From a virus (taxonomy: Duplodnaviria; Caudoviricetes), in the IMG/VR virus record IMGVR_UViG_3300032281_000616, positions 64,001 to 128,000 of that record: a stretch of DNA of 64,000 nt, one strand, 5' to 3'. A program made the translations under genes and the position numbers. The notes under the pieces are model-generated. The model saw only the letters and a list, made by a program, of their open reading frames with translations, did not search any database and was not told the origin of the DNA. Of this stretch, positions 54,654 to 62,708 are shown piece by piece; position 1 is the first letter of the stretch; every line of letters starts with the position of its first letter.

Positions 54654-54922
54654 AACAGCGAGAGAAGAAATTTTCGAATTATTAAAAAATAACTTGAAAA
54701 ATAATAACCAAAAAACTAAATAACTTTACAACTAAATGCACTCCAATTACCAACCGATGTTTGAAGGGAAAGACAATCGCGCCGATTGTTGACGGAGGAA
54801 CTTTATTGATTAAACACTAGAATAAAGTATGGACCTCCTAAGCAAGGGGCATCTGATAACGCAGTTAGAAAAAGATGTTTAGGTTTTGGTATAGATCCGA
54901 AAAAAAGAATAAAAATTTAAAT

Positions 54923-55001: not shown

Positions 55002-55098
55002 GGGTACATAGGCTAATGCGCGAAAATGAAATAGAGCTAAGTGTATCACAGGTTGTGACGATAAGATTAGCTAGAGGTTCAACTCCTCCGTGTGCTCA
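55002..55098 (+). ncRNA. tRNA-like RNA with acceptor and T arm but a non-canonical core
   Basis: GGGTACA(T)/(G)TGTGCTC acceptor, GAGG-TTCAACT-CCTC T arm, GCTAAT/ATTAGC long internal helix. Confidence 0.5.
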
Positions 55099-55108
55099 CA
55101 ATTCAAAC

Positions 55109-55179
55109 TGGAATATCGTCTAATGGTAAGACAACGCTTTCATACGGCGAGAACGACAATTCGATTTTGTCTATTCCTA
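55109..55179 (+). tRNA. tRNA with CAT anticodon (Met or Ile2)
   Basis: GGAATA/TATTCC acceptor, GTCT/AGAC D stem, TT-CAT-AC loop, GACAA/TTGTC T stem. Confidence 0.75.
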
Positions 55180-55184
55180 CATAT

Positions 55185-55257
55185 GCGTGTTAACGATGGG
55201 ATTATGATTTGCTCGTAATGCGAATCATGAAGGTTTCGATTACCTTCAGCCGCACCA
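55185..55257 (+). ncRNA. D-armless tRNA-like RNA with 9 bp central stem and encoded CCA
   Basis: GCG(T)GTT/AGCCGC acceptor, ATGATTTGC-TCGTAAT-GCGAATCAT, GAAGGT-TTCGATT-ACCTTC, 3' ACCA. Confidence 0.55.
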
Positions 55258-55418
55258 TGAAATACATCAAAGCTATTGACTTTATTCAGTGGATATGGAA
55301 GAATACATTCAACACAGAGAAATCAAAATCACAAATTAAAAGAGATCTGGAACAAGGTTCTGTTAAATTGAATGATAGAAAAATTAAAGTGGATGATGTG
55401 TTTGAGTTTGAAGACTAA
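55257..55418 (+). CDS. S4-like RNA-binding mini-protein (53 aa)
   Basis: SKSQIKRDLEQGSVKLNDRKI..DD matches the S4 alpha-L motif. Confidence 0.7.
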   Translation: MKYIKAIDFIQWIWKNTFNTEKSKSQIKRDLEQGSVKLNDRKIKVDDVFEFED

Positions 55419-55419
55419 T

Positions 55420-55508
55420 GTGCGGGCGGCAACGATGGTGGTGTTGCATTGGTCTGTAAAACCAATCCCTACGGGTAAACAATGTGGATTCGAATTCCAC
55501 CCTTCACA
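55420..55508 (+). tRNA. tRNA-Tyr (GTA)
   Basis: TTGGT-CTGTAAA-ACCAA anticodon arm, variable arm, GTGGA-TTCGAAT-TCCAC T arm. Confidence 0.9.
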
Positions 55509-55590
55509 CCGATGTTGGATAGCACCCAACTGATTTGGATAACAAAAGCGTGATAAGTCCAAAGAGAACCAAAAATAAAACGCGCACAAA

Positions 55591-55662: not shown

Positions 55663-55749
55663 CGAGGTTGATGTATAATTCTAACGACGACGAAGTATGA
55701 AAAAACTGTTGAATTGGCTGTGATCCGAGGCGATATGATCGGATAATAA

Positions 55750-55844
55750 CTAGGTGTTGCGATAGCTTGGTAATCGGGCCGACTTGGAATCGGTTGTGGG
55801 CAGAAAGAGTCTGTCTATCGGGGGTTCGAATCCCTCCACCTAGA
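55750..55844 (+). tRNA. tRNA with TGG (Pro) anticodon and a class II long variable arm
   Basis: Perfect CTAGGTG/CACCTAG acceptor, GCCGA-CTTGGAA-TCGGT, 25 nt variable region with an 8 bp stem, GGGGG-TTCGAAT-CCCTC T arm. Confidence 0.85.
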
Positions 55845-60414: not shown

Positions 60415-62319
60415 TTAAAGGTTAGCGGCTTGAAAATGCATAAAGTCTATATTCCTAGCTTTACCTAAGCTAGTCCAACCCTCTGCTTCGACAATCTTCC
60501 AAAATGGTTCGTATTCAGGTCTAGCTAAAAATGCTTTATCTTTACCCCATTTCAATTGATTTCTATCTGGATCAATATCCACAGCAGCACCCCAGGAGTT
60601 TGATACAACCATACCATCCACAATAAAATTATGGGTATCTTCGACTTCGATATCAAAAACGTCCACAAGTCCTTTTTCGAGATATTTCACATCTTTGACA
60701 CTTTTGTAGATAAAATCTGGAAATAATTCCTCATATCCCATACAGTGAGATGTTCCCTTATTATGTTTAGAATCTTTCACCCTATCGAAATACATTATGT
60801 CCTCAACACATGTAAATATATTATTAGTATCGACCGAAGTAAACATCCACCCGTCTCGCCTATTACACTTAACTCCACATATTTCAGTCTCCCCACCGTT
60901 CCTCTTATCCAATTTCGAATTTCTGAATCCATGGAGAGATAGCAAAAGTCGAAGATTTAGCATTAAATTATACGAGGCACATTTGAAAGAATGTTTAACC
61001 GCCCTACTCGATTTTATTATACACCCATCCGTGTATAAATAACCTCTAATAAATGATCGTTGCTGATCGATAGTTGATGACCAAACTTCGGTGGGAATAT
61101 CTTTATCGAAAGATTTTTTATTATATGGTAAAAACCTTTCCCATATATCTCTTTTGTTTATAATGAACTGTTTTTCATTCTTTTTAATGTTCTCAGAACC
61201 AAAATAATTATCAAATAATTTTTCCGCGTGTTTTCTGATTCTATCACTTTTTGGAATCTGTATAGACATGTATGATGGCGATCCTTTTCGATGATGAATA
61301 CACCCATCACCTATAAACATGCCTAGAATTTCATACCAAGAATCCCAGTTAATATCTCCATCAACTATTGATTTTTTAAGGAAAACTATTTTATCCCCCT
61401 TAATTATATCTTTAGCTTCCACCATCTCTGTCCAATATTTGGCTCTTATTTGACCGTTTTTGTTTTTGTGTTGTATATATTCTGTCGGTTCTAATGTCTT
61501 CTTTTTCAAAACTAAAATTTTATGTTCCGGCGAACAGTCAATATCTCCACCACAAACCACGACTTTTACTAGCGGTTTTTTCCCATTCTCGAAGAAATTT
61601 TTAACCTTTTTTGTGACCAAATTTCCAGATTCGAATGAATAAACATAATCACCGATGGATATATTTTCGATAGGAACAATACCTTTTGGTGTCCACACCG
61701 GAGAACCTTTCGGTAAACAATGCTTACTCCATGAAGATCCACCGCGCATTTTTCTCACATTCAACACACCACCGAATCGATTAAGTCTTAGTTCTTTTAT
61801 TGCATCAATACCATAGTGATCTAAAGTATTTTTGAATATTCTTTGTAGAGAATCATGAACCTTTTCATGACAAGTGATTTTAGAAACCTTAGAATCTAAA
61901 TCCCAAGCTAAAAGCATTTCATATGGTAATTGTAAAGTTGTTTGGTTTGTCCCGACAGCACCATAAAACTTCACCATACTATTATAATCTTGCTTAGGCC
62001 AATCATTATAATGTTTTTTTACATCTACAGATTGAGATACATCAGGTTTCTTAACATGTAGGCTATCTTTTTTAAGCAATTGTTCATAAGCTGATTGAGT
62101 CATGTTACCCCAAAGACCATCAATATTTCCAATGTTTATATTAGATCTCACAGCAGCTACTTGAATTACACCAGTAACTAATTTTTCACCATTCCAAGTA
62201 GTTGGAAAATTGTAATATTTGAAAGCAGCTTCTTTACTTTTTTTACCAAAATCACCATCAATAGTTTCGGTGTAGAAACCAGAGTCTTTTAATATCTTTT
62301 GTGCTAATTTTTCTTTCAT
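60415..62319 (-). CDS. Endolysin: PG-binding domain plus M15 zinc peptidase, interrupted by an intein
   Basis: QKILKDSGFY..IDGDFGKKS PG-binding repeats; spliced SKH|SWGAAVD zinc motif; DFMHFQ third ligand; ATG at 62319 overlaps the upstream stop. Confidence 0.92.
   Translation of the reverse strand: MKEKLAQKILKDSGFYTETIDGDFGKKSKEAAFKYYNFPTTWNGEKLVTGVIQVAAVRSNINIGNIDGLWGNMTQSAYEQLLKKDSLHVKKPDVSQSVDVKKHYNDWPKQDYNSMVKFYGAVGTNQTTLQLPYEMLLAWDLDSKVSKITCHEKVHDSLQRIFKNTLDHYGIDAIKELRLNRFGGVLNVRKMRGGSSWSKHCLPKGSPVWTPKGIVPIENISIGDYVYSFESGNLVTKKVKNFFENGKKPLVKVVVCGGDIDCSPEHKILVLKKKTLEPTEYIQHKNKNGQIRAKYWTEMVEAKDIIKGDKIVFLKKSIVDGDINWDSWYEILGMFIGDGCIHHRKGSPSYMSIQIPKSDRIRKHAEKLFDNYFGSENIKKNEKQFIINKRDIWERFLPYNKKSFDKDIPTEVWSSTIDQQRSFIRGYLYTDGCIIKSSRAVKHSFKCASYNLMLNLRLLLSLHGFRNSKLDKRNGGETEICGVKCNRRDGWMFTSVDTNNIFTCVEDIMYFDRVKDSKHNKGTSHCMGYEELFPDFIYKSVKDVKYLEKGLVDVFDIEVEDTHNFIVDGMVVSNSWGAAVDIDPDRNQLKWGKDKAFLARPEYEPFWKIVEAEGWTSLGKARNIDFMHFQAANL
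60598..61719 (-). mobile_element. 374 aa intein with LAGLIDADG endonuclease domain
   Basis: Starts CLPKGSPVWTP; block B SPEH; ILGMFIGDG and FIRGYLYTDG; ends HNFIVDGMVVSN followed by Ser. Confidence 0.95.
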
Positions 62320-62708
62320 CTGAATTCTGGTTGTTCTGTTTTCTCTACCCAAGATAAAGGAGCATAACTTGGATCATTTGAATATTTATTTACATACTCC
62401 AATACGATATCTTTATTTACTATTGTTTCGTCTATTGTAACTGATGTGAGTCTTTTAGTCTCTTCTTGAACTTCTGTTTCTCTAATAGATTTCACACTAT
62501 AAGCCTTAACCCAAGAATCACCAGATGCTCCTAGAATAAAGAGTGATCCAATTGCTAAGAAAAACTGCATATACGGAGTTGGGTCGAATTGAGCACCCAT
62601 GTATAAGTTTACAAATAATACAGTAAATGCGCAACCAATAAAGATGGCACTCCATATTTGACGAACTGACTTCATAAATTCTGTTTTATCTAGGGGATCT
62701 CTTTTCAT
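62316..62708 (-). CDS. Holin-like membrane protein (2 TM)
   Basis: Two hydrophobic segments and a charged C-terminus, directly upstream of the endolysin. Confidence 0.55.
   Translation of the reverse strand: MKRDPLDKTEFMKSVRQIWSAIFIGCAFTVLFVNLYMGAQFDPTPYMQFFLAIGSLFILGASGDSWVKAYSVKSIRETEVQEETKRLTSVTIDETIVNKDIVLEYVNKYSNDPSYAPLSWVEKTEQPEFR

Follow-up and report, generated by a model that had tools for sequence, protein, structure and literature searches.

A tRNA array of a T4-like phage carries two small elements upstream of its tRNA-Tyr gene, a tRNA-like RNA that displays GUA at the centre of a seven-nucleotide loop and a gene for a free-standing S4-fold protein of 53 residues. We are nearly certain that each represents a family, and both are apparently undescribed so far: a literature search, incomplete in coverage, found neither a description of the RNA family nor a free TyrRS-type S4 protein in phages, and neither the RNA nor the protein was matched in cultured phage records. 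The kinds of element involved, namely tRNA mimics, D-armless tRNAs, stand-alone S4 proteins and anti-defence tRNA-Tyr genes, are already known. Our preferred reading, with a probability of about 0.45, is that the two elements are independent cassettes and that the RNA is a mimic of tRNA-Tyr that does not take part in translation.

The DNA analysed here, a stretch of 64,000 nucleotides that we call the window, spans positions 64001-128000 of a complete virus record of 202,205 bp with terminal repeats. The genome has about 34% G+C and a T4-type gp23 capsid gene; its relatives have genomes of 197-212 kb, a gp23 that is 77-94% identical and a common tRNA order in the array (Glu, Met/Ile2, Tyr, Asn, Pro, Lys, His, Gly, Gln). 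The RNA, the open reading frame and the tRNA-Tyr all lie, on the plus strand, inside the array of tRNAs called with ARAGORN and Rfam. A tRNA with a CAT anticodon of the Ile2/Met type (55109-55180; Rfam RF00005, 50.7 bits) comes first, and it precedes the tRNA-like RNA in every copy of the latter that we found. The RNA itself occupies 55185-55257 (73 nt). The S4 gene (55257-55418) has its ATG at 55257-55259, 53 codons and a TAA at 55416-55418, and the A of its start codon (55257) doubles as the last base of the CCA encoded by the RNA (55255-55257). A single T (55419) separates its stop codon from the true type II tRNA-Tyr(GTA) called by ARAGORN at 55420-55510, which has the loop CTGTAAA, an 18-nt variable region and a discriminator A55508 followed by CC, so that its CCA is only partly encoded. 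The sequence and the list of open reading frames thus bear out the arrangement given in a preliminary description of this DNA, and the peptide quoted there, SKSQIKRDLEQGSVKLNDRKI, is present in the 53-residue product.

A tRNA-like RNA lacking the D and variable arms

The RNA is best described by a bulged acceptor, a long stem and a T arm. The 5' acceptor strand (55185-55191) forms 6 bp with 55248-55253, position 4 being bulged and the helix including G1-C72 and C2-G71; it is 96.7% paired across the variants described below, with two pairs that vary on one side only, whereas a straight 7-bp acceptor reached just 54%. The D arm is replaced by a 12-nt single-stranded linker containing GGG (55192-55203), invariant in all five variants, which could possibly contact the T loop; a canonical D stem imposed on the variants was only 50% paired. 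There follows a 9-bp stem with a 7-nt loop, YCGUAAW (55204-55228), in which 55204-55212 of the window copy pairs with 55220-55228 and closes the loop TCGTAAT (55213-55219), with GTA at the loop centre (55215-55217) and a C where U33 would be expected. The 6-bp T stem with its loop TTCGATT (55229-55247) is 100% paired and abuts the 9-bp stem with zero nucleotides between them, so there is no variable region. A discriminator A and the encoded CCA (55254-55257) end the molecule. In a tRNA the helix lengths are 7+5 and 4+5, which the 12-bp acceptor/T branch and the 9-bp stem of the RNA match, and an L-like shape is therefore plausible.

Taken alone, the window copy stands out from chance to a modest degree, with a fold z-score of -1.9 and a probability by composition of about 2% for GTA at the loop centre; it was called by ARAGORN in no form and had no match in Rfam. 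Its relatives are more informative. Copies with one change are found in G006, L166 and L167 and diverged copies in G002, G016 and G039, giving five distinct variants, all from one phage group, that are 84-99% identical overall. Three DNA patterns used to search for the RNA returned mostly chance matches or unrelated tRNAs, and the informative copies came in part from reading the arrays. All five variants keep GTA centred in a loop that always reads YCGUAAW, and all keep C33 and the bases G1-C72, A73 and GUA, the last three being the identity elements of bacterial tRNA-Tyr (PMC9976931, PMC5370408). The preliminary description had noted the loop TCGTAAT with GTA at the anticodon position, and the fold confirms it, on a 9-bp stem.

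The bulged model pairs 98.1% of cells in the five variants, against 30-51% when the partners are slid and 74% for a cloverleaf. Compensatory changes occur at two pairs, the one closing the loop (C-G, U-G, U-A) and the first of the T stem (G-C, A-U). The covariation, coming from five related sequences, is thin: its score was reached by 14 of 500 shuffles, and related sequences may show such a score without structure. The RNAalifold consensus, moreover, exchanges the T stem for a long extended helix. A covariance-model search separated the family (97-105 bits) from everything else (<25 bits). The RNA is better conserved than the neighbouring true tRNAs; in G002, G016 and G039 it is 84-89% identical to the window copy, whereas their tRNA-Tyr genes are 56-62% identical to that of the window, for which the shuffled baseline is 58%. 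Part of this high identity could come from recent exchange.

A 53-residue S4 protein

The S4 mini-protein has 27 homologues that are 68-100% identical, and further, more distant homologues reach down to 34% identity. Its pN/pS values against six relatives, 0.08-0.24, indicate purifying selection; the row for L166, misregistered because extended to an upstream ATG, was left out. Such an in-frame ATG lies at 55227 in the window, inside the RNA, and yields the 63-residue gene call of the database (P0002), whereas the family alignment begins at 55257. Three mini-genes (L038:722-864, L201:3001-3158 and L202:3001-3107) carry frameshifts or an internal deletion, and the defects of the first two may be sequencing errors.

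The alpha-L S4 fold named in the preliminary description, two helices on a small sheet, is shown by the predicted model and its structural matches. The AlphaFold model has a pLDDT of 93.9 and the order of elements E-H-H-E, and all ten top VIA matches are S4-containing chains, with Z-scores of only 4-6. PF01479 is matched by all 27 members (best E 1.7e-4) and PF22421 weakly by 26 of the 27; all these Pfam scores fall below cut-off, the window protein scoring 17 bits with PF01479 against a curated 22.8. The basic residues of helix 2 are conserved, and RNA binding is predicted.

The proposed likeness to the C-terminal domain of TyrRS was favoured by most of the sequence comparisons and found no preference in structure. 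In a set of 1.84 billion proteins, the best and sole full-length relative proved to be a TyrRS C-terminus (E 7e-7), and the profile comparison asked for at the outset gave TIGR00234 (tyrS) matches for 26 of 33 members against four for RluA, alongside the Pfam scores below cut-off. The S4 profile had as its top match a TyrRS C-terminus, or a contig-end piece resembling one, in 13 of the 14 bacterial genomes that were matched at all; the 21 genomes searched had been picked through TyrRS and the count is biased accordingly. In one genome the profile gave TyrRS 26.8 bits against -1.7 for an RluD-type protein. In a sequence search of the PDB, which was empty with one query (A1) and returned weak matches with another (A2), RsuA tied with TyrRS. 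VIA placed RsuA, RluF, uS4 and TlyA above TyrRS, and the top Foldseek match was Hsp15. Searches of GTDB genomes gave no close relative, BFVD had no match at E 0.001 or better and two weak matches of high probability, and a search of longer proteins found just one TyrRS, at E 0.5. The ESM Atlas holds a 1571-member cluster of S4 proteins of about 70 residues, with PF01479 in 52% and a lead-level score of 0.88. We consider it fairly probable, from the sequence profiles, that the mini-protein derives from the C-terminal domain of TyrRS; its assignment to an S4 family is weak. Resolution is poor in the S4 tree (60 columns, three starred nodes), and we therefore claim neither an order of events nor a donor.

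The closest full-length relative belongs to the TyrRS P0033 (L043:1498-5325), encoded on a 6-kb contig beside genes for an RNA ligase, a histidine phosphatase and a PRPP synthetase; this TyrRS is possibly phage-borne. A split TyrRS was rejected for the present phages: the class Ic catalytic domain (PF00579) was found neither in the complete genome nor in any of 17 related records, mostly fragments.

One feature of TyrRS is missing. The alignments end the mini-protein before the terminal GKRRF/GKDRF hairpin, and in the T. thermophilus enzyme it is Asp423 of that hairpin that reads U35 (PMC1934993). A TyrRS-like reading of a GUA loop by the mini-protein is therefore unlikely.

Linkage of the RNA, the S4 gene and tRNA-Tyr

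We surveyed the loci of 29 S4 proteins, among them the identical window and L008 copies counted as two, with many loci on fragments. Eight lie directly before tRNA-Tyr, two within 600 nt of it and one before tRNA-Asn; eight lie between recA and queC, two after thyX and eight elsewhere. The recA-queC placement was checked with Pfam for L010 and taken from flanking sequence for the others. Thus 19 of the 29 are not within 600 nt of a tRNA-Tyr, a count in which fragments may hide a tRNA-Tyr elsewhere, and a role specific to tRNA-Tyr is weakened. The synteny of the S4 gene with tRNA-Tyr holds within one array-bearing phage group and fails for about two thirds of the loci. Moreover, the copies next to tRNA-Tyr come from that one group with its shared tRNA order and are not independent, so that the association can be a matter of gene order passed on by descent. 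Another phage group (L010:1905-3892 and seven like loci) has the mini-gene squeezed in between recA/uvsX and queC, with start and stop codons that overlap or closely abut.

These positions bear on the main rival to our reading, in which the S4 protein would be a general factor associated with ribosomes or RNA, as Hsp15, RqcP and YaaA are, having no particular tie to tRNA-Tyr and an inherited place in the array, and the RNA would titrate TyrRS or another tRNA-binding host protein in place of serving as a nuclease decoy. The survey count, the Foldseek and VIA rankings, the tie of RsuA in the PDB and the loss of the U35-reading hairpin all argue for such a factor. Against it, sequence profiles repeatedly choose TyrRS C-termini, in the TyrRS-picked genomes as in the comparison with the RluD-type protein, and we regard this rival as unlikely.

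The preliminary description went further in the other direction and proposed that RNA, S4 protein and tRNA-Tyr form one compact module in which the protein binds both RNAs. All three do occur in the same order in the window, in G006, in L166/L167 and, with spacers, in G002, and there are the eight S4 genes directly before tRNA-Tyr. The parts are nevertheless found apart. The complete genome G039 has the RNA and tRNA-Tyr without S4, and in G016 an intact RNA accompanies an S4 gene that is internally deleted and frameshifted; conversely, S4 occurs without the RNA in G001 (96% complete), L165, L169, L021 and G003. In L165 the RNA is missing exactly, and the S4 ATG directly follows tRNA(CAT). With most S4 genes elsewhere, the Tyr-adjacent ones related by descent and the RNA devoid of a variable arm, the three-part module gave way and now seems quite improbable.

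The close packing in the window has a simpler candidate explanation. A MazG-like gene follows the RNA in G002, G016 and G039, and its stop codon overlaps the S4 ATG in G002 and G016. When this gene is taken out of the G016 arrangement at two AT dinucleotides, the window junction results. Judged from these sequences, the overlap of ATG and CCA is probably a deletion scar left by the loss of the MazG-like gene, the direction of change being one that we infer, and this loss would account for the adjacency on which the module was built. We propose, then, two separately inherited cassettes in the recombining tRNA array of related 200-kb T4-like phages, with an array order of tRNA(CAT), mimic RNA, MazG-like gene, S4 mini-gene, an optional gene and tRNA-Tyr; the absence of the MazG-like gene in the window would have put the S4 start codon on the CCA of the RNA. 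At the junction there is no Shine-Dalgarno sequence, and cleavage 3' of the CCA would take away the A of the AUG; translation of the S4 protein would thus have to use the precursor or a message with almost no leader.

G002 was at one stage taken to be without tRNA-Tyr, following ARAGORN. This was dropped when inspection found a tRNA-Tyr(GTA) at L233:5795-5878, with a fully paired but odd D arm and the unusual T loop ATCGACA, which ARAGORN and Rfam had both missed. The tRNA-Tyr genes of the related phages keep the anticodon loop and differ widely in variable region and stems. This divergence fits pressure on that tRNA and also plain shuffling of cassettes.

Possible roles and related systems

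tRNA-Tyr is a demonstrated target of antiphage nucleases (PMC13096335, PMC11555353). Septu and retron-Eco7 cut its variable arm (PMC13096335), a phage tRNA-Tyr rescues infection from both as supplement or decoy (PMC13096335, PMC11555353), and colicin E5 cuts YGUN loops (PMC1635277). By analogy with these systems, the decoy or protective roles suggested in the preliminary description have precedent.

For the RNA, the loop is the feature to consider. The U-turn formed by U33 contributes to ribosome binding; TGT requires UGU, whereas for colicin E5 YGUN suffices, with a preference for A at N and tolerance of C at position 33 (PMC1635277). With C33 and YGUA matching the needs of colicin E5, the loop would by analogy be poorly suited to decoding and well suited to cutting by nucleases of the YGUN type, and the RNA, having C33, no D stem and no variable arm, is unlikely to decode. 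We propose that it would be excised from the array transcript as a tRNA would be and would display its GUA loop without decoding, soaking up host proteins that read the anticodon loop. Its most likely role would be that of a tRNA-Tyr decoy for such readers, for example YGUN-type anticodon nucleases, and we put this forward tentatively.

For the protein, the S4 domain of TyrRS binds the variable arm of tRNA-Tyr (PMC5370408, PMC1934993). The likeliest ligand of the mini-protein may thus be the long variable arm of the true tRNA-Tyr, which it could shield from nucleases of the Septu/PtuAB type, a role we hold with somewhat greater reserve than that of the decoy. It probably does not bind the mimic. 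Of the first reading, a direct complex of the two has the weakest support, since the variable arm is missing from the mimic and the anticodon hairpin from the protein. That both roles hold together, a purpose-built non-translating mimic absorbing anticodon-loop nucleases while a free TyrRS-derived S4 protein caps the arm cut by Septu and retron-Eco7 PtuAB, is, on our estimate, improbable; the literature searched described neither form of defence.

Could the RNA instead be a functional, non-canonical tRNA-Tyr, D-armless like mitochondrial tRNA-Ser(GCU), that escapes nucleases recognising the variable arm and carries tyrosine to ribosomes? It has the Tyr identity bases, an encoded CCA, the 12-bp branch and a canonical T loop, and the lack of a variable arm would remove the Septu site (PMC13096335). 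However, the conserved C33 stands where U33 would contribute to ribosome binding, the acceptor is bulged, the long variable arm that it lacks is a recognition element for bacterial TyrRS (PMC5370408), and the D-armless tRNAs of the cited literature are mitochondrial (PMC9427863, PMC7609411). In addition, every phage with the mimic keeps a normal tRNA-Tyr. A working tRNA therefore appears very unlikely.

Still further down is a miniature version of the tRNA-like domain of tmRNA, with its stemless D loop, long helix and T arm, which would bind SmpB or ribosomes. The architecture is similar and short words are common to the mimic and the ends of E. coli tmRNA (GGAUU in the D loop, CAGC..CACCA at the 3' end). 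The mimic has neither an mRNA-like domain nor the G3-U70 alanine pair, the Rfam tmRNA model (RF00023) gives it no score whereas ordinary tRNAs score weakly, and a conserved GUA-centred loop would be needless; the RNA is not a tmRNA. The first idea, a decaying tRNA-Thr(CGU) pseudogene whose GTA is a one-base misreading, drew on a 12-nt word across the loop in common with E. coli thrW and on CTCGTAA, a perfect Thr loop in the window, and was overturned by the homologues in related arrays, which have C33, pair 8-9 of nine stem positions in the GTA register in all five variants against 2-4 in the CGT register, and are better conserved than the adjacent true tRNAs, leaving it the least probable reading of all.

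Among known systems, the protein is closest to the C-terminal S4-like domain of bacterial TyrRS (PF22421, PF01479; PDB 1H3E, 1JH3, 6BYQ), with which it has in common the alpha-L fold and an SKS-x-RR-x-EQG-x-VKLN core. It differs in standing free with 53 residues in a genome that has no catalytic domain, in lacking the hairpin with Asp423 (PMC1934993) and in a longer first helix with a conserved DxIQWIWK motif. Hsp15, RqcP and YaaA are likewise single small S4 domains; the mini-protein is smaller, phage-encoded and nearer TyrRS in sequence. For the RNA, the D-armless mitochondrial tRNA-Ser(GCU) (PMC9427863) also has a linker for the D arm and an extended anticodon stem, whereas the mimic is phage-encoded, with a canonical T loop, a bulged 6+6 acceptor/T branch, C33, the Tyr identity set and a normal tRNA-Tyr alongside. 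The tRNA-like domain of tmRNA, the YrlA Y RNA and allo-tRNAs (8/4 and 9/3; PMC5389517) are non-cloverleaf molecules with a 12-bp acceptor/T branch as in the mimic, which departs from them in its 6/6 branch and its lack of variable arm, mRNA-like domain, G3-U70 pair and Rfam match. The phage tRNA-Tyr genes that counter retron-Eco7 and Septu also lie in tRNA arrays and are discussed as supplement or decoy (PMC11555353, PMC13096335); those tRNAs are of the ordinary kind and rescue only when their anticodon and stems are intact, unlike the separate non-canonical mimic and protein described here.

The counter-measures in the cited work are ordinary phage tRNAs in excess or with a changed variable loop. 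Against that background the mimic offers a small, cheap test of true RNA decoys in phages, and the 53-residue TyrRS-type S4 protein a direct test of whether a protein shields a tRNA. The mimic carries most of the interest: being invisible to ARAGORN and Rfam, RNAs of its sort are missed in phage tRNA arrays, and even if neither function holds it is a new structured RNA family with a 6/6 acceptor/T geometry for which we found no description.

The array contains further conserved elements. Following tRNA-Tyr, 55511-55590 is 88-100% identical in G006, G002, G039, G001, L165 and L166, always precedes tRNA-Asn where seen and has no Rfam match; it contains a small hairpin, a stem showing a compensatory change (TTTGGA/TCCAAA versus TTCAGA/TCTGAG) and another stem, in crossing arrangement, that has an A-rich linker, giving it a pseudoknot-like look. 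Before tRNA-Pro, 55665-55750 is non-coding, conserved (83-86% identity in L021 and G016) and without Rfam match. A structured-looking leader at the start of the array (54745-54850) contains a AAACACTA box and is recognisable in L009, L021, L165, L166 and L169, and a 97-nt tRNA-like RNA at 55002-55098 is 95% identical in L021 and thus a conserved cassette too. After tRNA-Tyr, G002 (L233:6030-6105) and L165 (1530-1601) have another tRNA-like family whose T stem is 6 bp long and whose D replacement is purine-rich; in the G002 copy the acceptor is tmRNA-like, with a G3-U pair, and the CCA is encoded. The arrays of relatives include tRNAs with a CTA (amber) anticodon (L165:502-576, L237:7137-7211, L235:2757-2830, L233:6942-7014), of which none was called in the window. 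Outside the array, the minus strand of the window encodes an endolysin-like protein of 645 residues with an intein-like insert (60415-62352).
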